Assembly: GCA_041690055.1 (NCBI GenBank)
Contig: JBDNFB010000227.1
Span: 2,974 to 66,973, forward strand
DNA from: Myxococcota bacterium
Lineage (GTDB): Bacteria > Myxococcota_A > UBA9160 > UBA4427
Reading direction: 5' to 3'
Length of the DNA: 64,000 bases
Shown: piece after piece, positions 23,696 to 40,348 of the stretch
Position numbering within the stretch: position 1 is the stretch's first letter
Layout of the letters: each line of letters opens with the position of its first letter
Translations under genes and position numbers: made by a program
Notes under the pieces: generated by a model
What the model was told of the DNA's origin: nothing
What the model saw: the letters and a program-made list of their open reading frames with translations, nothing else
Database searches by the model: none

Positions 23696-24955
23696 CTAAA
23701 CCACCGGAAGCGCAGCAGTCTCCGGCTGCGATTCGCGCGCCTTCTCCAACGATGTTCGCCAACGCGCCGGTCCCGATAGATCCACCACTGCCTCGGGTTC
23801 GAGGGAAGGCGGATCGAGCGCGGGGTCTTCGAATCGCTGCACAGTTTTGTAGAGCGTCGTCCGCTCCACGGGCACGCGGCCGAGTTCGCGAATCAGGCGG
23901 CGGAACTCTTCGGGCGGCGTATTCTCGCCATGGTCCGCGCCAGACTCGCGACTGATCGATTCCTCCATCAGTGTGCCGCCGAAATCATTCGCACCCGCAC
24001 TCAGCGCCATCTGACCCAGCTTATGTCCCATCTTGACCCACGAGACCTGGATATTCGTAAACCAGGGCCGCAAGAAGAGACGCGACACCGCGATGATCCG
24101 CAGATCCTCTTCCATCGAAGGGCCGGGCCTTGAGCCAAGCAGGTTGTAGAGCAGATTCCGCTCGTGGATAAAGCCAAGCGGCACGAATTCGGTGAAGCCG
24201 CCGGTCTCTTTTTGGATCTCGCGCAAGAGGTCGAGATGGCCCGCAATATGATGTGGCTTCTCGATATGACCGTACATGAGCGTCGAGGTAGACCGCAGGC
24301 CGATGCCATGCGCCGCCTTGATGATCTCGACCCAGCGATCGGTCTTCAGCTTGTTAGGCGAAAGGATGTCGCGGATCTCGTCGTCAAGAATCTCGGCCGC
24401 CGTTCCAGGCATGGTTCCGAGTCCCGCGTCGACGAGCCATTGCAGATAGTCCGAGAGCTCCATCCCGCTCTTTTTATGCGCGAAATCCATCTCTTCGGGC
24501 GAATAGGCGTGGATATGAAGGTCTGGATACTCGGCCTTTACCGCTTTGAGAATATCGCGGTAATGCTCGTGGTTTTTGTTGGGATGGATCCCGCCCTGGA
24601 TGCAGACTTCCGTGGCGCCTCGCTCAATGGCGTTCTGACATTTTTCGAGGATCTCTTCGTGGCTGCGGTCGAAGGCTTCTTCTTTGTCGTCCTTGTGCCG
24701 GGCGAAGCCGCAGAACGAACAACCGACATAACACACGTTCGTGAAGTTGATATTCCGACAAACGACGTAGGTCACGTCATCGCCGCAGTCTCGCTTCCGA
24801 GCGAGGTCGGCTGCAGCAATCAGAGCGTGGAAGTCGAGCCCTTGAACGGTAAGAAGCCGTTCGGCGTCCTTCGCCGAAAGCTCTTTGCCATCAAGCGCAC
24901 CTTCAAGAAGGCTGCGCACATCACTCGAAACAGCAGCGGTAAGTTGTTCAAACAT
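23696..24955 (-). CDS. cofH: FO synthase subunit CofH (radical SAM)
   Basis: VTYVVCRNINFTNVCYVGCSFC, EVCIQGGIHP, PGTAAEILDD, NIQVSWVK.G, GANDFGGTLMEESISR; adjacent to cofG. Confidence 0.9.
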   Translation of the reverse strand: MFEQLTAAVSSDVRSLLEGALDGKELSAKDAERLLTVQGLDFHALIAAADLARKRDCGDDVTYVVCRNINFTNVCYVGCSFCGFARHKDDKEEAFDRSHEEILEKCQNAIERGATEVCIQGGIHPNKNHEHYRDILKAVKAEYPDLHIHAYSPEEMDFAHKKSGMELSDYLQWLVDAGLGTMPGTAAEILDDEIRDILSPNKLKTDRWVEIIKAAHGIGLRSTSTLMYGHIEKPHHIAGHLDLLREIQKETGGFTEFVPLGFIHERNLLYNLLGSRPGPSMEEDLRIIAVSRLFLRPWFTNIQVSWVKMGHKLGQMALSAGANDFGGTLMEESISRESGADHGENTPPEEFRRLIRELGRVPVERTTLYKTVQRFEDPALDPPSLEPEAVVDLSGPARWRTSLEKARESQPETAALPVV

Positions 24956-24956
24956 C

Positions 24957-26348
24957 TCAAGCGGCCTCCTCGTCGGACTGGTTGTTCTTCCGCTGCGCGT
25001 AGCCCTCGTCGTTGGCGTATTTCGGCAGCAGTGCCCGCATCTGCGGGTCAAAGAATTCGGGACGTTCGAGGATCCAGTCCGGATAGACGGGACCTCGTTC
25101 AAAAAGTTCGAAGCCGGCGGCCTCAGTATCCTCGCGCAACTGGCGCAAAGCAGGCCAGGGCGCTTCGGGATTGATAAAATCGACGGTGATCGGCGAAACG
25201 CCGCCCCAGTCATCCACGCCCGCCTTCAGCAGACGCGGGAGCATGTCGGCTCCAAGGTTCGGCGGCGCCTGGACATGCACTTCGCGGGGCAAGATCAGCC
25301 GCGCAAGCGCGACCCAACCCACCACCTGGTCATCTTTGAGGGGCGAAGCTGCGCGCATCTTCGTGCCCGGCTTGGGATGGAAAGGCTGGATGATCGCTTC
25401 CTGGATATGGCCGTAGCGGAGCGCAAGATCGCGGATCACCCAGAGCGTATCGACGCGCTCCGCATTGTTCTCGCCGATCCCGAGCAGCATGCCGCTGGTG
25501 AACGGAATCTTCAGCTCGCCCGCCTCTTCATGCATTTTGATACGCGTCGCAGGCTCTTTATCCGGCGCGTGAAAATGCGGCATCCCCTTCTCACGCAAGC
25601 GCCTACTCGTAGTCTCGAGCATCAGCCCCATCGAGGCATTATACGGCCGCAGCCGCGCCATCTCTTCTTTCGTGAGGATGCCCGCGTTCGTATGCGGAAG
25701 CATGCCCTTCTCGATCGTCTTCTTGCAGGCCTCCACAATCAGATCCGTCGTACTTGTTAGGCCACGTTCCGTCAGCATCTCGCGGTAGCTGCCATAAGCC
25801 ACCTCAGGCTTATCGCCGAGGCACATCAAGGCCTCCACGCATCCCGTCGCGACACCGCCGCGAACGACCTCTGCCACTTCCTCAATGCTGTAGGTATGTG
25901 CTTCCGCGGAATCGGGCTGTTTCGCAAACGTGCAATAGGTGCAGCGATTGCGGCAGAGATTCGTCAGCGGGATAAAAATATTTCGTGAGACCGTCACGCG
26001 TTCGCCGGTCTGCGCGACTTTGATTGCGCGCGCGCCGCGGCAGAGCGCGTCGAGGATTTCCGCGTCCGCGAAATGTTCGGAAAGGATCTCGGCCTGCTCG
26101 CGTGAGAGCAACGCGACGCCTTGGACTACGTCTTCTACCCAGGCCTCCACCTCAGAAACGGCGGGGGGAACACCAGGGCGAGCCAACGCGTCGCGAGCGC
26201 CGAGCGGGGCGCCGGCTTTGCGGGTCGAGTTCTCTGGTTCTGGGTTTTGCGCGTTCGGCAAAAGGGGGACTCCGAGGGATCCGGTCGAGCTGATCAGAAT
26301 AGGGCGGGCGCACTCTAGAGCATCACACAGGCGCGCTGCCTTCCGCAA
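24957..26348 (-). CDS. cofG: FO synthase subunit CofG (radical SAM); start uncertain (~26150-26350)
   Basis: SRNIFIPLTNLCRNRCTYC, PHTNAG, SMGLMLE, PDKEP, FTSG.L.GIGE, QAPPNL, DDWGGVSP.T.DFINPE.PWP. Confidence 0.92.
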   Translation of the reverse strand: MRKAARLCDALECARPILISSTGSLGVPLLPNAQNPEPENSTRKAGAPLGARDALARPGVPPAVSEVEAWVEDVVQGVALLSREQAEILSEHFADAEILDALCRGARAIKVAQTGERVTVSRNIFIPLTNLCRNRCTYCTFAKQPDSAEAHTYSIEEVAEVVRGGVATGCVEALMCLGDKPEVAYGSYREMLTERGLTSTTDLIVEACKKTIEKGMLPHTNAGILTKEEMARLRPYNASMGLMLETTSRRLREKGMPHFHAPDKEPATRIKMHEEAGELKIPFTSGMLLGIGENNAERVDTLWVIRDLALRYGHIQEAIIQPFHPKPGTKMRAASPLKDDQVVGWVALARLILPREVHVQAPPNLGADMLPRLLKAGVDDWGGVSPITVDFINPEAPWPALRQLREDTEAAGFELFERGPVYPDWILERPEFFDPQMRALLPKYANDEGYAQRKNNQSDEEAA

Positions 26349-26427: not shown

Positions 26428-27468
26428 CTACCCCTCTAGACGGTCGGGGTTCCCCCCGGGCGATACGAGTTCCCCCTTGGCCGGAGCTCCGTCCTCTTCT
26501 CGTGGCTGCGTCCGCCAGCGACGATGGGTCCAGATCCACTGACTCGGCTCCGCCCGAATCGCCGCTTCGATGGCCTCCGTGACGCGCTGCACATTGGCGC
26601 GAATCGCTTGCGCGGGATCGGCGGCGTTCGAAACGAGCGGAATCGCAGGACCGATCTCGACGCGATGCCCCTGGCCGTTCGCGCCGCGCCGGATGAAGGC
26701 GGGCACGATCGGAACGTTCCGGGCCATCGCCAATTCGACCGGCCCCGAGCGCGTACTCGCCAGACGCCCGAAGAACGAAACGAACACTCCCTCTTCGCGC
26801 TTCGCGTCTTGGTCGAGCAGCGTAATCACTTTCCTCCCCGACTCGAGCGCGCGCACAACCGGCAAACCCGCATGCCCCATCCGAATCTGCTGCACCGAAG
26901 AAGCGTCGCCCGCGCCCTTTTCCCCGATCGTGCGCCCTCGAAGATCCAAGAGGACCTGGTCGAGAGCGGGCTCTCGGAGACCGCGGTAGACGACGGAAAC
27001 CGGAATGCCCAGGGCCGCGACTTTCGCACAAGCCAGTTCCCAGTTGCCAAGATGTGCCGTCACGACCAAAACGCCACCGCGTTCGGTCTGCGCTTCCGCC
27101 GCGCGGAGATGTTCGAGTCCTTCTACTTCGACTTGATCCAGCAAGGCGGCTGCCCTTGCGCCTCTCAAGGCGAGCAGTTCGACGAGTCCCTGCGCGAGAT
27201 GTTCGAAGACACCGCGCGTCCAAGCCTCATGATCGCGCGGGGAATGCGTCGGAAACGCGGTCGCCAGCTGCGCTCGAACCCGTCCGGTGCGCGGCGCGGA
27301 GAGCGCAGCCCACCCGCGCCCGAACCCGCGCGCGAGTGCCGCGCTCGCCGAAAGCGGAATTCGCTCCACGATCCAGGTCAGCCCATCGATCAAGCCAGAA
27401 AGAAGTCGGCTCCGCAGCGAACGCTCGGACGCTTCGCGACCCGTCGACCCTGCGCCTGGAGCGCCCAC
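26428..27468 (-). CDS. Lysophospholipid / lipid A late acyltransferase (LpxL/HtrB family)
   Basis: TAHLGNWE, LDQD, V.FFG, PSQWIWTHRRW; starts 14 nt after the carboxylase stop. Confidence 0.88.
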   Translation of the reverse strand: MGAPGAGSTGREASERSLRSRLLSGLIDGLTWIVERIPLSASAALARGFGRGWAALSAPRTGRVRAQLATAFPTHSPRDHEAWTRGVFEHLAQGLVELLALRGARAAALLDQVEVEGLEHLRAAEAQTERGGVLVVTAHLGNWELACAKVAALGIPVSVVYRGLREPALDQVLLDLRGRTIGEKGAGDASSVQQIRMGHAGLPVVRALESGRKVITLLDQDAKREEGVFVSFFGRLASTRSGPVELAMARNVPIVPAFIRRGANGQGHRVEIGPAIPLVSNAADPAQAIRANVQRVTEAIEAAIRAEPSQWIWTHRRWRTQPREEDGAPAKGELVSPGGNPDRLEG

Positions 27469-27482
27469 GCTCCAGCCCCTCC

Positions 27483-30400
27483 TCAGCGACCTGAGAGAGA
27501 GGCTTCGAGCGAATGAATCACGGCCGCACGCAAATCCGATGGATCGAGAATCTCGGACAGCGATCCCACTTCCCGCGCGCGATTGACGTTATGCACGGCA
27601 TCAAACTCGGCCGCCACCGAAGCCTGCTTTTCGAGCGTGACTTCTGTCAGCACGTCTTCGAGCTCCGCGCGATGCTCTTCCGTCGGATGTCGCCGGGCCT
27701 GCTCGGTCTTGTCCTTCACCCGAGGATCATCGAGCGCCTGCGCCCGCACCTCGCGACTGAACACCACCGCCGCCGCCGGCCCGCCGCCGATCACCGAAGC
27801 GTAGGAACCCGAAAGGGCGACCGCCTTCATTTCATCGTTTAGCTCCTGGGAGAAGACCACGTAGGCCCCGCCGTGGTAGCGAGAGACGACCGCGAAATAG
27901 ATCGGCCCGGCAAAGTTCACGACCGCGCGCGCAATCTCCGCGCCGTTTTCAAGCTGAATCTTGCGCAGCGATTCCGGCGAGCCATCAAAGCCCGACAAGT
28001 TCGCGAGCACGACAACTGGCCGATTTCCGCTCGCCGAATTAATCGCGCGAGCGACTTTCTTCGAGGACTGCGGAAAGAGCGTGCCGCCGTTCCAGGACTC
28101 GGGCCCGTCCGCCGGGTGGTAGCCGTCGCGGGGCACGTTGCGGCTCTCGATGCCGATAAGCAAAACCGGCTGACCGCCGACATGCGCATCCCAGACAATC
28201 GCTGTCTCGGCACCTACCCAGGCATTCCATCGTTCAAGGTACCCGCCGTCCTGGTCAACGAGCGCGTTCATCACTGCGCGCATAGCGAAAGGCCGTTTGC
28301 GTCCCGGATTCGTTTCATCGTCGAAGAGTTCACCGACCGTCTTGAGACCATCCGCATCGGTCTCACCAATCGTCATCTCGCCAATCGAGCGCGCCCGTGG
28401 ATCTTCAGTCGCAAATGCCCGCGGCCCTGCCTCGCCCGGCACCACATACGTGAAGCGGTAGTGCTCGTACAAGATGCGGTAGGCATCAGCGAGGTTCCGC
28501 GCGTAGTACTGCGCCTCACCATTCGGCCCCATGATCCGCTCAAAGCCGCCGATGGCGATTTCGTCTTCTGCCGAAACAGCGCCCGAAGCTTCGAGCGCCG
28601 CGCGTCCAGTCAGGACCATCGACGCGTTCTGCGTCATGATCAGGACACCACGCGTATGCATGAGCATTGTCGAAAGAGCGTCGAAGTAACTTTGCGCTCC
28701 GACGTTGACGCCTTGAACGATGATATGAACGATGCCGCCGGTCTGTGTAAACGTTACTATGCGTCGGACGACCCGAGCCGTCGCATCGAGGTTCTCGGTG
28801 CCGCTATCCATCGCGATCTTCGCACCCGAAGAAACGGGCACCCACTCGAGCGGCACGCCTTCTTTCTCGGCGAGATCGAAAGCGGCCACAAGTCGATCGC
28901 ATTCCGGCGCCGACAAAGCGCCCATGCCCATCGTCGGATCTGACAGCACGAGTACGCGCTGCATGCCTTCCGGGACTTTTTCAGTCGGCGTACGAATCAG
29001 GCCAAACACAACCGCCGAAGTGTTCTGGCCTGGCGGCCTCGACGCAACGCTCATGGCGCGCGGCGTCTTGCTTTCCGGATCCAAGTCGAACTCTTCGAAA
29101 GAGCCTTCTGTGCGCTCTCCTTCCGAGGTTTCCCCCGTCAGCATCTTCACGATCTCATACGGATAGATCAGACGACGTCGGCGTGCGGCAACAACCTTCC
29201 GCTCGTATTCCTGCGCGGGGGCAAGAGGCGCGTGATGCGGATTTCGCCAAGTCGTCTCGAGCTGCTCGCCGGTATCTGAAATCACGAGTTCGCAGGCTTC
29301 CGCCGGTTCGTCTGGATTCTCGCGATCGAGTCGATTGAGTTTGACGATCACTTTCTCGAGGCCTAGATGACGGGTCGCGGGGGCAAGCCTGCGTGCCACG
29401 TCACTCGCTACTTCCGCGTCCACAAAAACCTCAGGCGCTACGAAGATCGCGATGCGATTCCATTGCAGCCGCCTTCGCGGATCGTTGGTTTGCAAGATCG
29501 TCCGAAGGCGGCGGGCCGCGCGGTTGAAGACGCGCTCGAAGGTCCCGAGATGATGAGAGAGCTCGCGACCCGGCTCTGGCGATCGATCGCGCGCATCAGC
29601 CAACACGAAAATGCGTTCGTCGCCGGGCGCATTGCGAGCGCGACCGTGGAAGGCGTAGATGCCTTCCTCGGACTGCAGGCGATCAAGATCGAAAGCCGCA
29701 TAGCGATCGAGCGCGATGCGTCCCGCGGTTTCCGGATGCAGATCATGATGTTCGTAGGCTCGCTCGATCTGTCCTTCGCGACGCACGAGCGTCCGGTAGA
29801 CGTCTCCTTCGCCGTCAGAGGTGAGCAATCCGACCGTGATCCGCCAACCGAAATCGACATCGGCATAAGCGGTTTCGATTTCGCCAAGCGTCTCGTCCCA
29901 GTCAAGACCCCCAGCGCGCTCCTCTTCGCTCGTCGCAGGAATCAAAAACTCAAGCGCTGTAATGGGCGTTCCCGGATCGCGCTCAAGGAGCGTTGCGGCG
30001 CCGCGCATAAGCCGGTCCATCCAAACCCCGAGTTCCGAGGCCTCTCCCGTCGCGGCCAACACAACACCCTTGCCTCGGTACTCCACGCAATGAATCGGTT
30101 CGTCATCCACACGAACTGCCCGATAGGCCTCAGGCGTACTCGGCGCATATCGTCTCTGAACATGGGCAGCGAGAGCAATCGCACGCCGATTCGAATCTTC
30201 TCCGCCGATCCAACGGCCCACCCGCTCAAAGACCATACGCGGCGAAGAAGCGACCTCGAGCAGCACGTCACCGGGCGGCGCCACAGCGTCCATCTCGGCT
30301 ACGGCCAACCATTCTTCGACCGTGCTCGAGGAACGCTTCGCGCGTTCTTCGATGCCCGGCTCCTGGAAAATGACGTACGAAGCTTCAAGCGCCGCATCCG

Positions 30401-33125
30401 CAATCGTATCCGTCACCTGAGGACGCATGCGTGCGATCCGGTTGAGGGCGCCGGCCAGCCGAGCATCATCGCCCATGAATATGCCGGTCTGCGCGAGTCG
30501 GGTAATCCGTCGCAGAACACCCAAGATCAAGGAAAGCCGCAGGCTCCGTCCCGGCTGACAAGCCAGAATCCGGAGCAGCGCCCGCCGCAGTGCATCCGAA
30601 GGCGAAAGATCCGTAATGCCGTAATGCGAGAGCGCCGCGCGAACCAAATCGAGGTACTCCTCGTCGATTCCCGCCCCCTCCGCTTCCACGCGCCGGATAT
30701 ACATACCGAGCCGAGCGTGATTCGAAGGTCCAGACTGGCCGGAAATCGAAGCGCTCGGTGCGCGAACGGAGAGGAGCTCTACGTCCGCGAAGGTTTCCAC
30801 TTCGTGCCGGATTTCAGCGAGTGCCCGCGTAAAGCTCTCCGAGAGATCCTCGGGCAGCGGCGCCTCAAGGAACGAAGCAAGCGCGTCCGCCCGATCGGGG
30901 TTCGCGTCGTAGCCGAGAAGCACCCGGCGAATCTCTTCGCGGGCAGCATCGATGGCGAGACGTCGATCACCCAGATCCGCATGATCCGCCGCGAGCAGAG
31001 CCGGCTCACCCAGCGGCCGCTCCTCGTTCGGTGAAAAGAGGAGCGCAATCGGATCCACTTGCTCCGGCAACCGCAGGCGCGTTCGAACCACGCTATCCGC
31101 GGCCTCTTCGCTCGACTCCTCGATCACAAGAATCATATCGCCGGCGGCAACCTGTTGACCCTTTTGGGCGATAACTTCCTTGATCGTCCCGCCCACGGGC
31201 GCCTGGAAGCCGATCTCCATTTTCATCGCTTCGAGCAGTCCCAGCGACTGCCCCGCCGTGACCGTATCGCCCTCGGCAACGTGAATCGCGACCACAACAG
31301 CGGGCGTGCTCGATCGGACCTGTCCCGCAGTTTGCGAGCTAAATCGGAGCGGATGGCCGTCGACTTCGAGACGCAAGCCGCGCTCGTTCGCGTCGTACTG
31401 AATCCGGCGCACGCGATCGTCGATGATCAAACGCGCGGCATGGTCGCCCTCTTCTCGCATCGTGGCGCCCACGGCGACACCTTCGAGATGTACGCGGTAG
31501 CGCCAGCTACCGATCGCGTAGACCTTGAGTCGATAACTCTCCGCCCCGAACGAGAGGTCGATTTGTTGACCTTTCGACGAGGGCGGTCGATCGCCGCTGG
31601 TATCCCCTCCGAAGATGCCTGTGCGCAGAGTCGCCCGGCTTCGCTGATAGGAGAGAATCGCCGCCGCGACGAGCGCGTCTCGTGCGAGCTCCGGATGGGT
31701 ATCCACGATGCTTGCGCGTTCGGCACTCCAGAAATCAAGCCAGCGTGTATCGACGCCGCCTCTCCGAAAATCGTCGCTCGCCAGGATATCGAGCAGATAC
31801 CCCTTATTCGTCGCTCCGCCCTCCACAATGAGTTCCAGATCCCGAAGTGCAGACGCGAGACGCGCGATCACATCACTCCGCTTCTCACCGTAGGTAATGA
31901 CTTTGGCGATCAGGGAATCAAAATCGGAAGAAATCACGGTGTTCGTCGTGACGCCGGAGTCGACGCGGGTATGTGGGCCTAATGCCGGCTCGAAGAGTGC
32001 GATGCGGCCTGGCGAGGGCAGAAAGCCTTCGTCCGGATCTTCGGCACAGACACGCGCTTCCATTGCGAAGCCGCGTCGCTCTACGGGGATCTCCGCGATC
32101 GACTCACCGCGCGCGATCCGAATCTGGATCTCGACCAGGTCGACACCGGCGATCAGCTCCGTGATGCCGTGCTCAACCTGAAGTCGCGGATTGACCTCAA
32201 GGAAGAAAAAATCCTCGCCCTTGATCAAGAACTCGACCGTTCCGACGCCGTAGTAGCCCACATGGCTCACGAGCTGGACCGCGGAATCTTCAAGGCGCGA
32301 AAGCAGCTCGTCGGAAAGACCGGGCGGCGGCGCCTCTTCGAGCACTTTTTGATGCCTTCTCTGCACGGAGCAGTCGCGGCAACCAAAGGACCGGGCAAAG
32401 CCATGCTGATCGGCGGCGACCTGCACTTCAATGTGGCGACCGCCCTGGACCATGGCTTCAATAAAGAGCGAGCCGTTACCAAAAGCCGCCATCGCCTCGG
32501 ATTCGGCGGACCGGAAGGCCTCGGCGATTTCGTCGCGCTTCTCGACCATTCGGATGCCGCGACCACCGCCACCCGCTGTCGCCTTGATCACGACGGGAAA
32601 ACCAATGCGTTCGGCATGCGCGAGTGCGTCGCGCTCATCCCGCAGCGCGCCGCCACTCCAGTCCGTCACGGGCACACCCGCGCGCTGCGCGAGTTCTTTC
32701 GATGTGATCTTGTCACCAAGCTGCCGCATGGCATCAGCCGGCGGGCCAAGAAAGAGGATGCCCTCGGCGTTCAGCCGGTCCACGAAGACGGGATCTTCTG
32801 CAACGAATCCCCAACCCGGCCACACCGCATCTGCCTTCGCTTCACGGAGCGCCGCCAGGACGCCATCATGATCGAGATAGGCGGCCACGGCGCCGTTCTC
32901 CGCCGAGAGTTCGACGGCGCGGTCCGCTTGCCGCACGTAGGGTGTGTTGCGATCGGGTGCTGTGAATAGGGCCACGACCTCGAGGCCGCCCCCTTCTCTT
33001 TCGCGGAGGCTCTTCGCCGTGCGAAGGCATCGGACGCCGGCCTCTCCCCGATTCACAATCGCCAGCCGCTCGATGCGGCGTGATTCGATTTGTCCCGGTC
33101 CGTTCGTGTCGCGCTCGTCACTCAT
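27483..33125 (-). CDS. Single-chain multidomain acyl-CoA carboxylase (BC-BT-BCCP-central-CT), ~1880 aa
   Basis: BC: NRGE, WPGWGF, GGGGRG, RDCSVQRRHQK, EVNPRLQVEH. Biotin site EAMKME. ~600-aa central region. CT: SSGAKI, LANLSGFDG, GGAYVV. Confidence 0.92.
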   Translation of the reverse strand: MSDERDTNGPGQIESRRIERLAIVNRGEAGVRCLRTAKSLREREGGGLEVVALFTAPDRNTPYVRQADRAVELSAENGAVAAYLDHDGVLAALREAKADAVWPGWGFVAEDPVFVDRLNAEGILFLGPPADAMRQLGDKITSKELAQRAGVPVTDWSGGALRDERDALAHAERIGFPVVIKATAGGGGRGIRMVEKRDEIAEAFRSAESEAMAAFGNGSLFIEAMVQGGRHIEVQVAADQHGFARSFGCRDCSVQRRHQKVLEEAPPPGLSDELLSRLEDSAVQLVSHVGYYGVGTVEFLIKGEDFFFLEVNPRLQVEHGITELIAGVDLVEIQIRIARGESIAEIPVERRGFAMEARVCAEDPDEGFLPSPGRIALFEPALGPHTRVDSGVTTNTVISSDFDSLIAKVITYGEKRSDVIARLASALRDLELIVEGGATNKGYLLDILASDDFRRGGVDTRWLDFWSAERASIVDTHPELARDALVAAAILSYQRSRATLRTGIFGGDTSGDRPPSSKGQQIDLSFGAESYRLKVYAIGSWRYRVHLEGVAVGATMREEGDHAARLIIDDRVRRIQYDANERGLRLEVDGHPLRFSSQTAGQVRSSTPAVVVAIHVAEGDTVTAGQSLGLLEAMKMEIGFQAPVGGTIKEVIAQKGQQVAAGDMILVIEESSEEAADSVVRTRLRLPEQVDPIALLFSPNEERPLGEPALLAADHADLGDRRLAIDAAREEIRRVLLGYDANPDRADALASFLEAPLPEDLSESFTRALAEIRHEVETFADVELLSVRAPSASISGQSGPSNHARLGMYIRRVEAEGAGIDEEYLDLVRAALSHYGITDLSPSDALRRALLRILACQPGRSLRLSLILGVLRRITRLAQTGIFMGDDARLAGALNRIARMRPQVTDTIADAALEASYVIFQEPGIEERAKRSSSTVEEWLAVAEMDAVAPPGDVLLEVASSPRMVFERVGRWIGGEDSNRRAIALAAHVQRRYAPSTPEAYRAVRVDDEPIHCVEYRGKGVVLAATGEASELGVWMDRLMRGAATLLERDPGTPITALEFLIPATSEEERAGGLDWDETLGEIETAYADVDFGWRITVGLLTSDGEGDVYRTLVRREGQIERAYEHHDLHPETAGRIALDRYAAFDLDRLQSEEGIYAFHGRARNAPGDERIFVLADARDRSPEPGRELSHHLGTFERVFNRAARRLRTILQTNDPRRRLQWNRIAIFVAPEVFVDAEVASDVARRLAPATRHLGLEKVIVKLNRLDRENPDEPAEACELVISDTGEQLETTWRNPHHAPLAPAQEYERKVVAARRRRLIYPYEIVKMLTGETSEGERTEGSFEEFDLDPESKTPRAMSVASRPPGQNTSAVVFGLIRTPTEKVPEGMQRVLVLSDPTMGMGALSAPECDRLVAAFDLAEKEGVPLEWVPVSSGAKIAMDSGTENLDATARVVRRIVTFTQTGGIVHIIVQGVNVGAQSYFDALSTMLMHTRGVLIMTQNASMVLTGRAALEASGAVSAEDEIAIGGFERIMGPNGEAQYYARNLADAYRILYEHYRFTYVVPGEAGPRAFATEDPRARSIGEMTIGETDADGLKTVGELFDDETNPGRKRPFAMRAVMNALVDQDGGYLERWNAWVGAETAIVWDAHVGGQPVLLIGIESRNVPRDGYHPADGPESWNGGTLFPQSSKKVARAINSASGNRPVVVLANLSGFDGSPESLRKIQLENGAEIARAVVNFAGPIYFAVVSRYHGGAYVVFSQELNDEMKAVALSGSYASVIGGGPAAAVVFSREVRAQALDDPRVKDKTEQARRHPTEEHRAELEDVLTEVTLEKQASVAAEFDAVHNVNRAREVGSLSEILDPSDLRAAVIHSLEASLSGR

Positions 33126-33133
33126 AGCCAGGT

Positions 33134-33964
33134 CTACTCCGCCGCTGCTTTGGGGCTGACTGAATCCATCACGTGATCCGTCAAGATCATTTCGCTTCCC
33201 GCATTCGTTTCGCTTCTCATATCCGTTCCTGTTCTCACACCCGCTCCTCTTCTCACATCCAAAGTCGGCGTCATTGCGAAGGCAACGAAGCGACCGTGAT
33301 GCGATAAAGAAAGAGACAGAGAAGTACATCCACCGTCGAGCTCGACAGTCGGAATCTTCCCGCACCGACCAATCGAGAGTCGATCGACCTCGACTCCCAG
33401 GTTCCGCCCGATCTCGCGCACAGCAAGTATGCGCACCGCAACACTCGGATCGGTGGAGGCGGGGGCAGGGGCAGGGGCAGGGGCAGGGGCGAAGTTGAAA
33501 GAGACGGGCGACCGCTCCTCGACCGAAAAGACAAGCGCATCCCAGTCAGAATCCACAGGCAGCGCAATCACATGCACCGATTGCGCCGACTCGTAGCTTC
33601 GAATTTCGAGCTCCCGCGCGTGAGGGGCAGGCAGGACCATCCGCCCGCGGCGCTCCACCCAACTCGTTTGCGCGGAAATCGCTGAGGACGCCGAAGCATG
33701 TATCGACCCTGAGACCATTTCCGCTGGTTCGAAACGCGCGGTGAGCTGAATCGGAGAGAACACGAAATGCGGATCGAGCTGCCGGGCCAGCTTGTAGGCC
33801 GCTTCTTTCGCGCCCCAATGCGCCCATCGGCAGGCCAGTGACGCCGCATCGCGGGCAATCACGCGCCGCTCTTCGGCGGAGAAAACGCGTTCGTCAAAGC
33901 GCGGTCGAAAGGTCTCGGGACGCGCGTCGATATCTTCGAGGTCGATGACATCATTGCCGAGCAT
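33134..33964 (-). CDS. 4'-phosphopantetheinyl transferase
   Basis: GNDVIDL, WGAKEAAYK, SLSLSHHGRFVA. Confidence 0.9.
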   Translation of the reverse strand: MLGNDVIDLEDIDARPETFRPRFDERVFSAEERRVIARDAASLACRWAHWGAKEAAYKLARQLDPHFVFSPIQLTARFEPAEMVSGSIHASASSAISAQTSWVERRGRMVLPAPHARELEIRSYESAQSVHVIALPVDSDWDALVFSVEERSPVSFNFAPAPAPAPAPASTDPSVAVRILAVREIGRNLGVEVDRLSIGRCGKIPTVELDGGCTSLSLSLSHHGRFVAFAMTPTLDVRRGAGVRTGTDMRSETNAGSEMILTDHVMDSVSPKAAAE

Positions 33965-34775
33965 CGAAATAATCTTCCTCCATCCGAATCAATTGACGAA
34001 CAATTTGCTGTGCCAGATCGCGCGAGCGGCGCACACCCTTCGCATCACTCTTGGGTTCAATCGCCGTCAGCGCGACTTCCACCGTGTCGCCCTTCGCCGG
34101 AAAGTCGCCCCAGGTTTCCTGGTTGCGGCCGCGCATATAGACGCAGAGCACGCGACAGCCCGGGATTGACCCGACGATACGCCCGACCCCCCAAGCCGCT
34201 GCCCGCTCTTCGACACGACCGCTTCGACTCCGACCGGCTTCCGGAAAAAGCAGCGCCGTCTCTCCTTTCGCAAGCAGAAACTTCACGCGCTCAAGCACAT
34301 CGCCCACATCTTCCCGCGCGCCGCCGCGCGTGATCGGGATGCATTTCGCGATGAAGAGCAGAAGACGCGCGAAGACGGTTTTCCCGAAATTCGTGCTCTC
34401 CGGGGTATTCCAAGGCAGCTCATCCGGATTCTTCAGCCAGTACGTGCCCGACCCAAGCGCCCATGCAATGATGAACGAATCCACCAGCGTGAGATGATTC
34501 GCACAGACCAGCAGAGGCCCATCCGATTGCGCACGGATCTGCTGATACTCACGGCGAATCCGCCGAACGTCTGCGATGCGATAGCGGAACCAGAGGCGCA
34601 TCACAACGACGCTCACGCCAACCCAAATCGGTCCAGCGATCATACTCACCGCACGCTGTCTCGCGTGGGCGCGCACCATCTCGGGATGCGAGTCGCTGGT
34701 TTTCTCGACCAGCTTCGCGCGTGCCCGGCCCGGATCAAGTTCTCCGGGATCATCGCTGGAAACGCTTTGGGTCAC
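33951..34775 (-). CDS. PlsC-like (1-acyl-glycerol-3-phosphate) acyltransferase
   Basis: NHLTLVD (HxxxxD) and LFPEAGRSR. Confidence 0.85.
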   Translation of the reverse strand: MTQSVSSDDPGELDPGRARAKLVEKTSDSHPEMVRAHARQRAVSMIAGPIWVGVSVVVMRLWFRYRIADVRRIRREYQQIRAQSDGPLLVCANHLTLVDSFIIAWALGSGTYWLKNPDELPWNTPESTNFGKTVFARLLLFIAKCIPITRGGAREDVGDVLERVKFLLAKGETALLFPEAGRSRSGRVEERAAAWGVGRIVGSIPGCRVLCVYMRGRNQETWGDFPAKGDTVEVALTAIEPKSDAKGVRRSRDLAQQIVRQLIRMEEDYFDARQ

Positions 34776-34812
34776 ACAGTTCCTCTGCCTACCGCTCTGC
34801 TTTCAGATCCGT

Positions 34813-35058
34813 TTAGAGCTTGCCCGAAATCAGATTGACAGCATCGCCCACGGTGTTCACCAGATCGACATCTTCGTCGGCGATTTCGATATCGAAATCA
34901 TCTTCGAAGGCGATGACCACATCCACGAGACGAGCCGAGTTCACCTTGAGGTCTTCGAGAATATTCGTCTCCATGCCCACCTTGCCGAGCGCGGCTTCGT
35001 CCTTGACCCAAGGCGTAAGAATCTTGACGACGCGCTCCATGACTTCCGATTGTTCCAT
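34813..35058 (-). CDS. Acyl carrier protein (atypical NSA motif)
   Basis: Acidic, 81 aa; EDLKVNSARLVDVVIAFEDDFDIEI...TVGDA; AAGGAG RBS. Confidence 0.9.
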   Translation of the reverse strand: MEQSEVMERVVKILTPWVKDEAALGKVGMETNILEDLKVNSARLVDVVIAFEDDFDIEIADEDVDLVNTVGDAVNLISGKL

Positions 35059-35081
35059 TTTTGCAGCTCCTTCTTTGGTCT

Positions 35082-35131
35082 GACCGTTTGACCCGACCGT
35101 TGACCCGACCGTTGACCCGACCGTTGACCCG
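35082..35131. repeat. 12-bp tandem repeat x4 between the KS and ACP genes
   Basis: gaccgttgaccc x3 plus one degenerate copy. Confidence 0.85.
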
Positions 35132-35219
35132 GCAGAGGGGTCCGACAGAGTGGTTCGAAAGAGCCGCTCTGACTAGACCCTAATCCATTCGCACGAATGC
35201 GAAGCCCATCTCGTTCGCG

Positions 35220-36512
35220 CTACGCCTTGTAGCGCTTGAATACCAGACAAGCATTGACGTCACCAAACCCAAAACCGGCTTTCACCAGCACATCGAGATC
35301 CGGCATTTCTCTCATCACATGCGGAATCGAAGCCGCATGCTTTTCAATCTCGGGATGCACATCTTCGCAGTTGATCGAGGGGTGCACGAAACCGCGCATG
35401 ACCATAAGCGCCGAGGCCACGGATTCGATTCCGCCAGCCGCGCCAAGGGCATGCCCAATCATGCTCTTTGTGGCCGTGATGGGTGGAAGCTCGCCCGGTC
35501 CGCGACCCAGCGCCCGTTCCCAGGAGCCCACTTCTTTGGGATCCGCTCCGGTTGCCGTCAGATGCCCGTTGATTGCGTCGACTTGATCCGGCGTGACGCC
35601 CGCGTCGGCCAGCGCTTCCGCGATGCATCGTTGAACGCTCGTCGGATTCGGCGAAGTCATGCTGCCACCCATACGGTGACCACCACAGTTGACGCCGCTA
35701 CCCGCGACCTCCACGTGAATGCGTGCGCCGCGCGCAAGCGCACTTTCGAGACTCTCGACCAGGACCACGCCCGCACCCGATCCAGGAATAAATCCGCCCG
35801 CCGAAGCGGAAAGCGGCCGCGACGCTTTTTCGGGATCGTCATTCGAACCACGGTTCAACACGCGCATGGCGTCAAAGCCGGCCCAGATATAGTGGCTCGC
35901 CGCCTCCGCCCCACCGCAGAGCATCCGGTCGGCAAGGCCCGCTCGGATCCGTTCCATTCCCATCGAGATCGCCTCGGTGCCCGTGCTGCAAGCGCTCGAG
36001 TTCGTGGTCACCTGATTACCGAGTGCGAGTTGGCCGGAGATGCGTGCGGAAATTCCGCTTGCCATCACCTGCTCCACCGCCGTCGAACCCATGCGACGCA
36101 CTTTGCCAGCGTTCGTCATCGGCACGACGCGTTCGGCGATCGTATCCATGCCGCCGATACCCGTGCCGAGAATCGCGCCGGATCGCCAATCGACTTCTTC
36201 CGAATCCGCGGCCGGGCGTTCGAGGCCTGCGTCTTCCCAGGCTTCGATCGCGGCGAGGCTCGCGTAGCGCTGATTCAGATTCATTCCGAGGAGTTCTTCC
36301 TGAGTGAACTTCTTCTCGCAGAGTGCGTCGACGCCTTCGGGTGTGCCCGCCACGGTGCAGCCGAACTTCGCCTCGGCCATCTTTTCCTGATGCCTCAGTC
36401 CGGACTTGCCCGCGCGCAGCGCTGCTTCGAATTCGCTAACGCCGACTCCGTTCGGAGCCACAACACCCAGCCCCGTAATGACCACGCGCTTCTTTTCACT
36501 CGCTCCGCTCAT
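35220..36512 (-). CDS. Beta-ketoacyl-ACP synthase (FabF/FabB family)
   Basis: RVVITGLGVV; catalytic triad SSACSTG / INGHLTAT / KSMIGH; GFGFGDVNA. Confidence 0.93.
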   Translation of the reverse strand: MSGASEKKRVVITGLGVVAPNGVGVSEFEAALRAGKSGLRHQEKMAEAKFGCTVAGTPEGVDALCEKKFTQEELLGMNLNQRYASLAAIEAWEDAGLERPAADSEEVDWRSGAILGTGIGGMDTIAERVVPMTNAGKVRRMGSTAVEQVMASGISARISGQLALGNQVTTNSSACSTGTEAISMGMERIRAGLADRMLCGGAEAASHYIWAGFDAMRVLNRGSNDDPEKASRPLSASAGGFIPGSGAGVVLVESLESALARGARIHVEVAGSGVNCGGHRMGGSMTSPNPTSVQRCIAEALADAGVTPDQVDAINGHLTATGADPKEVGSWERALGRGPGELPPITATKSMIGHALGAAGGIESVASALMVMRGFVHPSINCEDVHPEIEKHAASIPHVMREMPDLDVLVKAGFGFGDVNACLVFKRYKA

Positions 36513-37000
36513 TGCGGTACTCCCATCCCCGAAAGTTCTCCGGAACACACAACGGTTCCGTCATCGGTCTTCATCTCGAACGAAGCGCGCAATTTTTTGC
36601 GACGCCAGAATTTGATCCGCCCCGTCGTCGTCACACGATCGCCCGGCTTCACCGTGCCTGAAAAGTCGATATTGCAATCCGTGAAGATCGTCAGCAGCTT
36701 GCCGACCTCTTCACGCGAGGTGTCGCGGGCGTAGAGAAAAATCCCGAACGCAACCACCCCCGCCTGCGCCGCAGTCTCAATCAAAATCACGCCGGGCGTA
36801 ATCGGATTCCCCGGGAAATGGCCCCGATAGAAATCCGCTTCCGGCGAGAACGTATACCGCGCAACGATATGCTCCTCGTCGAGTTCCACAATCTCGTCGA
36901 TGAACCGAAATGGTTCCTGTTGCGGAACCATTCCCAGTACTTCTTCGGGGGAGAGGATGTCGCCTCCAGGAGCGGCTGCATCCGCGGCTTTATCCGCCAT
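36509..37000 (-). CDS. 3-hydroxyacyl-ACP dehydratase, FabZ-like
   Basis: PQQEPFRFIDEI and FYRGHFPGNPITPGVILIE (His...Glu). Confidence 0.9.
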   Translation of the reverse strand: MADKAADAAAPGGDILSPEEVLGMVPQQEPFRFIDEIVELDEEHIVARYTFSPEADFYRGHFPGNPITPGVILIETAAQAGVVAFGIFLYARDTSREEVGKLLTIFTDCNIDFSGTVKPGDRVTTTGRIKFWRRKKLRASFEMKTDDGTVVCSGELSGMGVPQ

Positions 37001-37748
37001 ACATGCCTCCGTTCACGTGGAGGACACTACCGTTGATATAGCTACCGCGCGTCGCAAGGAAACCCACCACGTCGGCGATCTCGTCTGCTCTACCCGTTCG
37101 TCCGATCGGAATCTTCGCCAGGATGGCTTCCTTGATTTCCTCGGGTAGTTCTTCGGTCATCTCCGTATCGACGAAGCCCGGCGCGATCGCGTTCACCAAG
37201 ATGTCCCGGCCCGCGAGTTCTTGTGAAAGCGATTTCGTAAAAGCGTCGAGTCCCGCCTTCACCATCGTGTACGGAATCTGTCCCGCATTGCCGGTATGCC
37301 CAACGACGCTTGAAATATTGATGATGCGACCCGTTCCCTTGCGCAGCATGAAGCGGCGCAGCACGAGCTTCGTGAGATACCACGTCCCTCTCGCCACCGC
37401 GGCCACCGAATCATATTGATCAAGATTCATAGCGAGCATCGGCGCGTTCACGTTGTAGCCCGCGTTATTCACAAGCACATCCACGCGACCCTCCGCACCC
37501 TTCAGTTCCTTGACCAGCGCATCAAGGCTCTCCGAATCCGTCAAATCCGCCTTGATCGTAAACGCACCACCACCCGTCGAGGCGAGTTCCGCCGCAAGTT
37601 TTTCCGCCGTCTCTTCGCTCGATCGGTAATGAATCCCGACGCGGAAGCCGTCCGCCGCCAGCTGCCGGCAACACGCGGAACCAATTCCCGTTCCGCCACC
37701 CGTTACGAGGGCGACGGGGGTTTCTTCGTTCGCAGCGCTCTCGCTCAT
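36990..37748 (-). CDS. fabG: 3-oxoacyl-ACP reductase, FabG-like
   Basis: TGGGTGIG, NNAG, NISSVVG..GNAGQ.PYTMVK, APGFVDTEMT, VNGGM. Confidence 0.88.
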   Translation of the reverse strand: MSESAANEETPVALVTGGGTGIGSACCRQLAADGFRVGIHYRSSEETAEKLAAELASTGGGAFTIKADLTDSESLDALVKELKGAEGRVDVLVNNAGYNVNAPMLAMNLDQYDSVAAVARGTWYLTKLVLRRFMLRKGTGRIINISSVVGHTGNAGQIPYTMVKAGLDAFTKSLSQELAGRDILVNAIAPGFVDTEMTEELPEEIKEAILAKIPIGRTGRADEIADVVGFLATRGSYINGSVLHVNGGMYGG

Positions 37749-38338
37749 CGCTCCATCCTTCCGCCCCGGGAATGCTCGCTCTCGTTCGGATAATCCGGAT
37801 AGTCGATGTCTTTAAAGAGCCCCACCCGTGCGCCCTTGACCGTATAGATCTCTACATCATCGATCAAAACCTGTGCGTCGCCGATCACCATCGCCGCACC
37901 GGCCTTCTTGAGTTCCGTGTACCGCTTGATCTGAAGCTCGTATCGCATGACGCCGTCGAAGGGCCGGATCTGACCGAAGAACTCCACTTCACCGCAACCG
38001 AGCGCACGGCCGGCACCTATGCCGCCGCGCCAATTGCAGTAGAAACCAAGCAGCTGCCAAACGCCGTCGAGTCCGAGGCATCCCGGCTGAACCGGATCGC
38101 CGATAAAATGACAGTGGAAGAACCAGTCATCGACGCGGACGTCACGGGAGGCACTCACTGTTCCACGACTCTTGTCGGCGGTAATCGATTCGACGCGGTC
38201 CACCATGAGCATAGGCGGCACGGGCAAGCGCGCGCAAAACCCTTCCGGCGGATCATCGATCAAACGACCGTATGCAAACGCGAGCAAATGCTGCTGCGTA
38301 AAAGAGTCGCGGGTGGTGAATTCAGCGTGAGACAGCAT
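37745..38338 (-). CDS. fabA: 3-hydroxyacyl-ACP dehydratase/isomerase FabA
   Basis: LP.PPMLMVDR, WFFHCHFIGDPVQPGCLGLDG (His...Asp), GRALG.GEVEF.GQI.P. Confidence 0.92.
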   Translation of the reverse strand: MLSHAEFTTRDSFTQQHLLAFAYGRLIDDPPEGFCARLPVPPMLMVDRVESITADKSRGTVSASRDVRVDDWFFHCHFIGDPVQPGCLGLDGVWQLLGFYCNWRGGIGAGRALGCGEVEFFGQIRPFDGVMRYELQIKRYTELKKAGAAMVIGDAQVLIDDVEIYTVKGARVGLFKDIDYPDYPNESEHSRGGRMER

Positions 38339-38370
38339 CGTCGATCGGTTTCCCTTGCCTAAGTATCAGT

Positions 38371-39363
38371 CTAAACATCATGAAATCGCATCAAATAACT
38401 TCCCCAGGTCAGACCAGAGCCGACGCCAACAACGCAAAGATCGTCGCGCGGCGTCCATTTATCCCAGCGCTGGGAAATCACACTTCCCGAGCTCGCGCCG
38501 GCTGTGTTTCCGAAGAGTTCGACATTCGAATGATGGAGATCGTCTGGCACATCGCATCGCCGACACACGGATTCGAGCATCCGCAGGTTTGCTTGATGAC
38601 CGATGAAATGAAAATTGCGCGTTTCCTCGAGATGTTGCTCGCGGCTCGCAAGCAGAAGATCAGAAGTCTTCCGAATCGCGAAGGTCTGGACCGTGCGGCC
38701 TTCCTGGCGGAAATGCCCGATCCGCGGCACGACCACCTTCTCATGACCGGCAGGGTCGGAAATTAGATTCGAGTGCACGATCTCGGCGACACCGCGCTGC
38801 TTGGTCGAGAACACCGCGGCCAGCGCACCATCGCCCCAAAGCACCGAAGCCGTCCGATCGCTGTAGTCCACCGTCTTCGTCATGGGCTCGGCGGTCACGA
38901 CCAATACAATATCGGGCAGCTTCGCTGGATCCATCATCGAAAGCATGTAGACCGCGGCAATAAAACTTGAACATGCCGAATTTACGTCGAGACTCGCCGA
39001 TTGCACTCCGAGCAACGCGCCCACATTGCACGCCTCCGCCGGCGATGTCGTATCAGGTGCACAGCCGCCGCCCAGCATGAGTCCCACATCGGAAGCATTC
39101 ACGCCCGCTCGTTCGAGTGCCATGTTCGCCGCGTACGCGCCCATCTGTGCATTCGAAATTTCGGCGGCTTCGATCGCGGCCGCCGGATCGGCGTTCCGAG
39201 TCGTCCGGATATAGTCGAGCGGCAGAGTCGTACGACGACTCCGAATCCCAGTCCGCTCAAGAATCCACTCGTCATTGGTCCCAATGTCGAGGTCCTCGAG
39301 GAACTGATTCGTGATCTCGTTCTCGGGATGGAAATGCCCAATCCCCAGCAGATTCAAGCTCAC
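38371..39363 (-). CDS. fabH: Beta-ketoacyl-ACP synthase III (FabH family)
   Basis: WILERTGI..RR; triad SACSSF / HQAN / GNTAGAS; GDGA; GSGLTWG. Confidence 0.9.
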   Translation of the reverse strand: MSLNLLGIGHFHPENEITNQFLEDLDIGTNDEWILERTGIRSRRTTLPLDYIRTTRNADPAAAIEAAEISNAQMGAYAANMALERAGVNASDVGLMLGGGCAPDTTSPAEACNVGALLGVQSASLDVNSACSSFIAAVYMLSMMDPAKLPDIVLVVTAEPMTKTVDYSDRTASVLWGDGALAAVFSTKQRGVAEIVHSNLISDPAGHEKVVVPRIGHFRQEGRTVQTFAIRKTSDLLLASREQHLEETRNFHFIGHQANLRMLESVCRRCDVPDDLHHSNVELFGNTAGASSGSVISQRWDKWTPRDDLCVVGVGSGLTWGSYLMRFHDV

Positions 39364-39385
39364 CTGCTTACCCTCGCCGTTCCGG

Positions 39386-40348
39386 CTATTTCGTCGAACC
39401 CGAGATGTGCTCGCCACCATCGACGCGGATCAACTCACCATTGATCCAGTTCGCCTCAGGTTGAGAGAGCAGAAAGATCACACCGGCCACATCTTCGGGG
39501 GTCGTGAGACGTCCTCCCGGATTGCGCAGCCGCGCTTGGCTCTTGAGCTGACCGCTGCCCGGAATGGCGCGCAGTGCGGGTGTATTAGTCACGCCCGCCT
39601 GAATCACATTGCAGCGAATTCCGTGGGGCCCAAACTCGAGCGCGATCGATCGCGCCAGCGCTTCGAGCGAAACCTTTGCAGCGGAGACCGCGGCGTATCC
39701 CTTCCAAGCGACCTCGTTGCCTTCACTCGTCAGGCCAAAGATCCGCGCGTCTTCCGCGAAGAGGCCGCGGGCGAAGAGTTCCTGCGTCCAGCCGAGGAGG
39801 CTCGTGCCCATCGCTAGAATCGTGCGGCTGAAATCCTCTTCGTCGAGGTAGGACGTGTCCGGATATTTCGGCTGACTCACAAGCGGATGCAGTCCGTCTT
39901 CGCCGGCTTCGAAGAGCTCGTCTGCGATCTCCGTCAGCTTCGCGGCATCGACGCCGAGGCGCTGCGCCAAGTTCGGCCCGGCGGTGCGCTCTTTGACTTT
40001 CTCGGGCGCGATCAGTTTAAGATTGCCGAACGCGATGGAATGCAGGAGCACGCGAACGCGGCCTTCGGCACCGATCGCTTCCACGATTTCGTCGAGGGTC
40101 TCGGTGCGCTTGTCGGATGCGATGGCGTCGGCGTTCCAAACGTGAAAGCCCACGCCCATGCCGGCCAGCTCATCAAAATGCGGTTGGATATCTTTCATCG
40201 CGCCGCGGCGATCGCGATGCACGATCAGGACATTCAATCCGCCGCGCGCAAGACGCTTCGCCGTGGCCAGGCCGAAGCCGCTCGACCCACCCAGGATCAG
40301 CGCCCATTCGTTCTTTGAAAATCCACTGCCGAAATCGTTCGTACCCAA
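39386..40348 (-). CDS. Enoyl-ACP reductase-like SDR (FabL/FabI-type)
   Basis: WALILGGSSGFG, TSEG, Y-x6-K (YAAVSAAK), NVIQAGVT.TPAL; probable TTG start downstream of GAGGGG. Confidence 0.8.
   Translation of the reverse strand: MGTNDFGSGFSKNEWALILGGSSGFGLATAKRLARGGLNVLIVHRDRRGAMKDIQPHFDELAGMGVGFHVWNADAIASDKRTETLDEIVEAIGAEGRVRVLLHSIAFGNLKLIAPEKVKERTAGPNLAQRLGVDAAKLTEIADELFEAGEDGLHPLVSQPKYPDTSYLDEEDFSRTILAMGTSLLGWTQELFARGLFAEDARIFGLTSEGNEVAWKGYAAVSAAKVSLEALARSIALEFGPHGIRCNVIQAGVTNTPALRAIPGSGQLKSQARLRNPGGRLTTPEDVAGVIFLLSQPEANWINGELIRVDGGEHISGSTK

Follow-up and report, generated by a model that had tools for sequence, protein, structure and literature searches.

A candidate second type II fatty acid synthase operon with its own carrier protein and multidomain carboxylase in Myxococcota

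The 64,000-nucleotide stretch of Myxococcota DNA analyzed here (the window; positions 2974-66973 of contig C227) contains a minus-strand run of eleven genes at positions 26428-40348. On balance we believe that these encode a vertically inherited second type II fatty acid synthase (FAS) that would work on a private acyl carrier protein (ACP), borrow FabD from elsewhere in the genome and pass its product through an acyltransferase to a lyso-lipid. The source genome (G000) comprises 6.34 Mb in 266 contigs and is 91.8% complete. In order, the genes encode an enoyl-ACP reductase (ENR), FabH, FabA, FabG, FabZ, a ketosynthase (KS), the ACP, a PlsC-family acyltransferase, an AcpS-type phosphopantetheinyl transferase (PPTase), a multidomain acetyl/acyl-CoA carboxylase (ACC) and an LpxL-type acyltransferase. 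An initial annotation had described eleven co-oriented genes with intact catalytic residues and no FabD. All eleven open reading frames (ORFs) carry the expected Pfam families, the residues are confirmed by alignment and motif reading, and there is no FabD-like gene among them.

The curated cut-offs that members of a housekeeping FAS operon would be expected to reach are passed in the cluster only by FabA and, marginally, by FabG, the latter in a subfamily model; the KS, FabH, FabZ, ACP and ENR all lie under the NCBIfam equivalog cut-offs. The KS (35220..36512), with an intact Cys-His-His triad and the motif INGHLTAT, scores 304.9 bits against TIGR03150 (cut-off 493.75). The ACP (34813..35058), an 81-residue protein with NSA in place of DSL around Ser41, reaches 46-48 bits with TIGR00517 (cut-off 70.45). 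The FabZ-type dehydratase (36509..37000) has a FabA-like Pfam domain and the motif GHFPGNP...E, and gives 71.1 bits with TIGR01750 (cut-off 155). The FabH-type ketoacyl-ACP synthase III (KAS III; 38371..39363) contains both the N and C ACP_syn_III domains and a Cys-His-Asn triad that aligns to 8vd9, and scores 201.9 bits with NF006829 (cut-off 249). FabA, the 3-hydroxydecanoyl-ACP dehydratase/isomerase (37745..38338), keeps the His and Asp of the E. coli FabA structures and scores 200.8 bits with NF003509 (cut-off 124). The 3-oxoacyl-ACP reductase FabG (36990..37748; motif YTMVK) falls below TIGR01830 (253.5 bits, cut-off 297.75) and just above NF009466 (223.9 bits, cut-off 222).

The ENR (39386..40348) is a short-chain dehydrogenase/reductase (SDR) of the FabL/FabI class with an insert of about 60-80 residues (approximately residues 104-170), the Y-x6-K motif YAAVSAAK, an adh_short_C2 domain and a weak Enoyl_reductase match in Pfam. 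Its best sequence matches in the PDB are FabL 3oic and FabI 1ulu, and an AF2 model with a pLDDT of 76 gives FabI 2wyw and FabL 3oid as the top Foldseek matches; about 7900 of 8000 scored candidates match it at E ≤ 1e-20. The PlsC-family (LPLAT) protein (33951..34775), which we propose as the off-loading enzyme, matches the Pfam Acyltransferase family at 43.7 bits, has the HX4D motif as NHLTLVD and gave no PDB sequence match up to E 1. The AcpS-type PPTase (33134..33964) matches Pfam ACPS over residues 2-60 and has a variable central insert, while its motifs GNDVVDL, WxxKEAxYK and SLSHHG are kept across 14 orthologues. The carboxylase (27483..33125) contains a biotin carboxylase (BC) domain, a biotin carboxyl carrier protein (BCCP) domain and a carboxyltransferase (CT) domain in that order with an AMKM motif, and the LpxL-type late acyltransferase (26428..27468) matches Pfam Lip_A_acyltrans at 135.6 bits and has the motif HLGNWE. 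A protein atlas returned only SDR and acyltransferase clusters, from Myxococcota, Pseudomonadota and Acidobacteriota.

The evidence that carries our reading comes from the relatives of the KS. The initial annotation had likened these proteins to an accessory FAS found beside type III polyketide synthase (PKS) genes in Bacteroidota and had proposed a KS phylogeny. We searched the KS against all 50%-identity representatives and found about 20 stand-alone KS clusters at 44-52% identity, while canonical FabF structures align to it at lower scores of 190-220 bits. Four of ten such clusters have a readable organism name and all four are Bacteroidota (Sphingobacteriales/Chitinophagales, 'Bacteroidota bacterium' and Ekhidna). 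A metagenome scan with alignment of the resulting KSs gave 80 low-GC loci, of which the 45 of at least 9 kb were tabulated. In a quick maximum likelihood tree the window KS and three Myxococcota orthologues group with these cassette KSs in a clade of 33 rows that has an SH-aLRT of 100 and stands apart from E. coli FabF and FabB, an aryl-polyene KS and the housekeeping FabF of the source genome and of two genomes of the same order (G030 and G035).

The genes around the low-GC KSs follow a regular pattern. All 45 loci hold a KS at 43-54% identity to that of the window; FabZ lies just upstream of it in 43 (32-41% identity to window FabZ) and an ACP just downstream in 44 (28-42%). An ENR is found in 24 (39-49%) and a PPTase is detectable after the ACP in five (22-26%). 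A type III PKS lies immediately upstream of the (ENR-)FabZ-KS-ACP genes in 40 of the 45, with a methyltransferase in 37 and an FAD monooxygenase in 36, so that the association with type III PKS genes is borne out by the KS relatives, by their neighbors and by the motifs they have in common with the window. For the ENR they are WALILGGSSG and YAAVSAAK, and for the KS INGHLT; four of the five cassette ACPs read have NSA, and the PPTase has GNDxVDL ... KEAxYK ... SxSHHG. The window has the same local order FabZ-KS-ACP, a KS with the clade motifs INGHLT[GA]T and FGFGDVN, an NSA-type ACP, the ENR motifs and an AcpS-type PPTase. On these likenesses we take the ENR/FabZ/KS/ACP/PPTase core of the operon to share descent with the accessory cassette, which would elsewhere feed specialized lipid enzymes.

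Five of the 45 loci have no type III PKS; two of these begin at the KS and three lie in other contexts. In L173, L175 and L179, which lack the type III PKS, FabZ-KS-ACP stands behind a protein of 376-380 residues without annotation, a 24%-identical relative of which is encoded on contig C24 of the source genome. A Pfam run on 48 ORFs from four cassette loci identified the type III PKS in L203 and L229, where a PPTase of the ACPS family and an MMPL transporter come after it, and placed L173 in an aminotransferase/reductase context and L179 in the context of a family-2 glycosyltransferase. In one low-GC lineage (L203, L206 and L248) the type III PKS/FAS cassette has a fabH-accB-accC group approximately 3-4 kb upstream, which parallels the linkage of FabH and a carboxylase in the window. 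Our literature search turned up no study addressing the function of the type III PKS/FAS cassette. According to one survey, type III PKS clusters make up 9% of the biosynthetic gene clusters of Flavobacteriaceae (PMC7440613).

The window differs from the cassette in lacking the type III PKS, methyltransferase, monooxygenase and MMPL genes and in adding FabH, FabA, FabG, a PlsC-family acyltransferase between the ACP and the PPTase, and the multidomain ACC. FabH, FabA and FabG are placed between the ENR and FabZ, and the window ENR carries an extra insert that the cassette ENR lacks. The absence of a type III PKS, pointed out in the initial annotation, holds throughout the source genome, where the best tblastn matches are FabH/OleA-like genes at 22-23% identity. 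No type III PKS lies beside the cluster at the related ACC loci (L026-L116), and matches occur only at two loci with distant ACCs (L052 and L072). This bears on the idea that an unlinked PKS or other secondary-metabolite enzyme draws a long-chain acyl starter from the FAS, making for example a phenolic lipid in place of a membrane glycerolipid. The usual neighbors of the homologous cassette speak for such a role, as do two type I PKS-like genes outside the cluster and an aryl-polyene-type cluster with a tryptophan-halogenase-family gene on contig C135. With no type III PKS homologue in the genome or beside the related clusters, and with the PlsC-family acyltransferase as the invariant neighbor of the ACP in the loci of this order, we consider it very improbable.

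Evidence that the operon is vertically inherited comes from its conservation. Close homologues come from records named as Myxococcota, Deltaproteobacteria or Myxococcales metagenome-assembled genomes (MAGs). Counting copies in two pieces as well as whole ones, the large ACC was detected in 23 of 24 genomes from the genus and in 13 of the 16 that represent other families of the order; it was not found in G030, G031 and G038. The initial annotation had also suggested a synteny search, which we carried out leaving out matches covering under half of the query, the ACC excepted. Sequence of 7 kb or more upstream of the ACC is available at eleven loci from other genera and families (L038-L047 and L120), and in ten of these the block FabZ-KS-ACP-PlsC-(PPTase) is kept directly upstream of the ACC, the exception being L045, which is arranged differently. 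No PPTase match was found in L047. The cluster is absent from all 68 loci with a more distant ACC (≤ 55% identity). Conservation in other genomes argues that the gene arrangement is not due to chance. The LpxL-type gene follows the ACC in ten of eleven loci from the same genus, while in other families it lies 1-4 kb from the ACC or is absent.

The surroundings of the operon are conserved as well. It is flanked downstream by cofG, cofH and dnaA and upstream by genes for a DinG-type helicase and a thiamine pyrophosphate (TPP) enzyme, none of which is related to the cluster, and the neighborhood TPP enzyme / DinG / cluster / CofG / CofH / dnaA / LON is common to the window and to L040 and L041, which indicates that the position near dnaA is old and the inheritance vertical. 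Three MAG records labelled Spirochaetaceae or Spirochaetales (L038, L045 and L047) carry an ACC at 59-77% identity to that of the window; L038 and L047 also have the cluster, and L045 has only FabG beside the ACC. These are probably mislabelled Myxococcota bins.

The carboxylase is by homology a member of the eukaryote-type multidomain ACC family typified by SACE_4237 of Saccharopolyspora erythraea. In the numbering of the longest ORF the BC domain spans residues 98-544, BCCP 683-748 and CT 1466-1957, so that BC, BCCP and CT follow each other in one chain of about 1900 residues with the biotinyl-lysine motif AMKM. The candidate central region matches PF08326 (ACC_central), the family of the non-catalytic central domain of eukaryotic ACC, weakly (E 0.012, 14.3 bits, cut-off 23.2); this family is recorded on several full-length relatives. 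The likeness to SACE_4237 was established through Pseudonocardiaceae genes of that kind together with layout and length: by tblastn residues 1-1863 match Pseudonocardia thermophila, P. terrae and others, at 38-49% identity in the best segment, and window protein and SACE_4237 have in common a single chain of about 1900 residues with BC, BCCP and CT, and probably a central region. SACE_4237 is described as a multidomain homodimeric acetyl/propionyl-CoA carboxylase of a family listed there only in Actinobacteria (Livieri 2019, PMC6491548). In that one studied host it is an essential, housekeeping, stand-alone gene (PMC6491548), whereas the window carboxylase is the penultimate gene of a FAS operon.

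Our genome scan recovered full-length relatives (L037-L116) in records labelled Pseudonocardia, Solirubrobacter, Myxococcota, Binatia, Acidobacteriota and Ca. Uabimicrobium amorphum and in a KSB1-labelled MAG. The range of this 'actinobacterial' multidomain ACC now extends to Myxococcota and several other phyla, a result of relevance to hypotheses on how the eukaryotic ACC arose. That the window ACC might be nearer to the eukaryotic enzyme than the Pseudonocardia ACC is was not borne out by PDB bit scores, which are alike (339.5 for yeast and 316.7 for human with the window protein; 323.8 for human with the Pseudonocardia protein).

Whether the operon is a second FAS or the primary one depends on the other lipid genes of the genome. 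A canonical fabD (324.5 bits, cut-off 260.9) adjoins a canonical AcpP gene (100.7 bits, cut-off 70.45) on contig C45, and a FabH passing its cut-off (374 bits, cut-off 249) lies with FabF on contig C74. The initial annotation had reasoned that a genome without another fab set would make the cluster a rearranged housekeeping FAS; since a second FabH, FabF and AcpP and a normal fabD are present elsewhere, this is not the situation here. Also outside the cluster are a second PPTase, eleven other acyltransferase matches to PF01553 (three of them strong, at 110-133 bits), a separate 1106-residue single-chain LCC-like carboxylase (BC-BCCP-CT) on C57, and a BC and CT pair on C76. Following FabH-FabF on C74 is a homologue of the CarF-like plasmanylethanolamine desaturase (157 bits, below the cut-off), and an OleA-like KAS III lies 7 kb from the pair. 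A megasynthase on C37 was considered as a type I FAS and set aside, as KS, acyltransferase and dehydratase domains are present and no ketoreductase, enoyl reductase or ACP was detected.

The opposing view is that the cluster is the main housekeeping FAS/ACC operon of the order, that the unlinked fabD-acpP-fabF and fabH genes are the rest of a single FAS, and that redundancy among isozymes accounts for the extra ACP, KS and FabH. Several observations weigh against a second FAS and fit a primary one equally well. If the aryl-polyene dehydratase is left aside, the source genome yielded no FabZ/FabA homologues but the two dehydratases of the cluster, and none beyond those of the cluster were found in three relatives (G035, G012 and G002). 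No other ENR of this type was found in the source genome, and no FabI-type ENR among the 19 other SDRs examined there, the best being a FabG2-type gene. No accA or accD was found at cut-off in it, nor in any of nine genomes of the order that were searched. The fabD-acpP(-fabF) locus of the relatives has no fabG and their lpxA locus no fabZ. The conserved position near dnaA and the vertical inheritance would also suit a housekeeping operon, as would the essential housekeeping role of the one studied carboxylase orthologue, SACE_4237 (PMC6491548). The content of the cluster also varies in ways that tell against our reading: there is no ENR match in L039-L041, no FabG in L042 and L047, and no FabA match in L043 and G035, in addition to the different arrangement of L045.

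Set against this are the sub-cut-off scores of the cluster KS, FabH, FabZ and ACP, where the unlinked AcpP, FabD and FabH pass, and the position of the KS in the accessory-cassette clade rather than with the FabF of the order. The housekeeping ACC could be encoded by the BC and CT pair on C76, and FabH, FabF, AcpP and FabD are all present outside the cluster. In three genomes of the order (G030, G031 and G038) neither the large ACC nor FabZ/FabA was found, and canonical FabD and FabF are nevertheless retained in G030 and G038. We regard a sole housekeeping operon as possible, if doubtful, and prefer the second FAS. The two readings overlap, as in this genus the dehydratases and the reductase probably serve both carriers. 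With no other FabZ/FabA and no FabI-type ENR found, the operon is probably not insulated and probably lends these enzymes to housekeeping synthesis on the canonical AcpP. The description of the pathway as self-contained was therefore overstated, all the more as an unlinked FabD is needed. The initial view of a dedicated pathway is supported as regards the kinship with the cassette, the lack of a type III PKS and the second fab set elsewhere; it is not supported as regards insulation, the carboxylase is of an already known kind and the linkage to LpxL is limited to the genus.

The relatives without the cluster bear on the value of the sole FabZ. In G030 and G038 fabD and fabF score above their cut-offs and no FabZ/FabA match was found. 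G031, a one-contig genome of the same order, has no type II FabF, no FabZ/FabA and no fabD or fabF above cut-off, and its only KS match lies inside a frame of 2173 residues; LpxA was found in both G030 and G031. A stand-alone ENR paralogue of about 258 residues, 39-40% identical to the cluster ENR, is present in G030, G038, G034 and G059, with no other cluster gene within 10 kb at any of the four loci, and the source genome has no match as strong as this paralogue. Among 81 sampled genomes of the phylum a FabZ match at 1e-10 was found in 43 and one above the cut-off in eight; the remaining 38, a number of which are assembled into between one and five contigs, lack any FabZ/FabA match at 1e-10. 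FabZ matches from other families of the phylum (five loci) were set aside, as they belong to other, non-orthologous clusters at no more than 38% identity. Many Myxococcota, complete genomes included, thus have lipid A genes and FabF/FabD without a recognizable FabZ/FabA. It seems that an unrecognized 3-hydroxyacyl-ACP dehydratase is in use in these bacteria, and as one may exist in the source genome too, possession of the only FabZ found counts for less as a sign of a primary FAS.

For a second FAS of this kind we propose a series of steps drawn from homology and intact motifs. The single-chain carboxylase would make malonyl-CoA, and the AcpS-type PPTase would activate the private NSA-type ACP, onto which the unlinked housekeeping FabD would load malonate, much as type II PKS systems borrow FabD. 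FabH would prime the chain, the KS, FabG, FabZ and ENR would run the elongation cycle, and in this genus FabA could add a cis-3-decenoyl branch leading to monounsaturated chains. The PlsC-family acyltransferase, positioned where the related low-GC cassette has its type III PKS, would then transfer the completed chain off the ACP and onto a lyso-lipid acceptor. Lipid A may in this genus be a further destination of the acyl-ACP, by way of the neighboring LpxL-type enzyme. With its adjacency confined to the genus, and as the only strong PF03279 match in the source genome, the LpxL-type gene may equally be an ordinary lipid A late acyltransferase. In evolutionary terms the cassette would have been completed in this order with FabH, FabG and the multidomain ACC, and in some lineages with FabA and the ENR.

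Dedicated fatty acid systems of similar logic are known from other bacteria. The FAS-II operon of Mycobacterium tuberculosis (fabD-acpM-kasA-kasB-accD6), which extends the products of FAS-I, likewise gives a second type II FAS its own ACP and a co-transcribed carboxylase component; unlike the window it includes fabD and has only a carboxyltransferase subunit, and the window ACP matches AcpM weakly (39.9 bits, cut-off 146). The rhizobial acpXL-fabZXL-fabF2XL-fabF1XL-adhA2XL-lpxXL cluster, which makes the very-long-chain fatty acid of lipid A, links a private ACP, a FabZ and KSs to an LpxL-type acyltransferase as in the window. It has two KSs and an alcohol dehydrogenase, whereas the window has one KS and no alcohol dehydrogenase, its LpxL is linked only within the genus, and the ACC, FabH, FabA, ENR and PlsC-type enzyme are extra. 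In Azotobacter vinelandii, ArsABCD is a dedicated FAS feeding type III PKSs for phenolic lipids, and it resembles the pathway proposed here in its logic, by which an ACP-bound product is handed straight to the off-loader. It differs in that ArsA and ArsD are type I synthases, and in the window the off-loader would be an acyltransferase. An aryl-polyene or ladderane-type reading was ruled out by domain content: aryl-polyene clusters have ApeI/ApeP dehydratases together with a KS/CLF pair and lack an enoyl reductase, whereas the window cluster has an ENR and no ApeI/ApeP domains.

The gene junctions are tight. As the initial annotation described, FabA and FabG overlap by ATGA, FabG and FabZ by 11 nucleotides (nt) and the PlsC-family and PPTase genes by 14 nt; the ATGA overlap of FabZ and the KS holds if the KS starts at ATG 36512, which we take as the corrected start in place of GTG 36548, where the longest ORF begins. 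For the carboxylase the most likely start is ATG 33125, 6 nt past the PPTase stop, which is predicted to give 1880 residues and sits within the homologue lengths of 1862-1901; its longest ORF begins at 33365. FabH probably starts at GTG 39363, with 39420 as an alternative, and the ENR start at 40348 (320 residues) agrees with orthologues of 314-324 residues. The carboxylase and LpxL-type genes are separated by a 14-nt gap, and the KS and ACP genes by a 161-nt spacer in which Tandem Repeats Finder identified 4.1 copies of a 12-bp unit, GACCGTTGACCC on the plus strand, at 35082-35131. A strong AAGGAG ribosome site follows the repeats, which could form a putative regulator binding array. Promoter and terminator scans gave counts inside the range of shuffled sequence (2 versus 3.3 and 20 versus 14.6, respectively).

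Beyond the cluster, at 23696-26348 and 21623-23587, are radical-SAM genes and, beside them, a long dnaA (654 residues), and the order is the same in L040 and L041. The radical-SAM genes were considered as pathway members and ruled out on their identification as cofG and cofH (FO synthase). An ORF of 120 residues upstream of the cluster gave no family match.

Our literature searches returned nothing on this operon in Myxococcota and no characterized pathway that it matches; a match to one would have undone the initial proposal. The component families and the kind of carboxylase were already known; what appears to be new is the combination, the descent from the accessory cassette and the proposed product. 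More speculatively, and with considerably less assurance than the reading given at the outset, the operon may be a complete second lipogenic system for a lineage-specific membrane lipid, with its own malonyl-CoA supply and carrier, in which off-loading from an ancient cassette has passed from the type III PKS to a PlsC-family enzyme. A glycerolipid, and within this genus lipid A too, would then receive acyl chains of a class of their own, perhaps ones of unusual length or unsaturated ones derived through FabA, and the carrier might be malonylated without FabD. Independently of that speculation, one accessory FAS cassette has apparently been wired to different off-loaders and contexts, namely a type III PKS, an aminotransferase, a glycosyltransferase and here an acyltransferase. 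The operon offers a concrete and widespread target for lipid discovery in bacteria that have never been grown.

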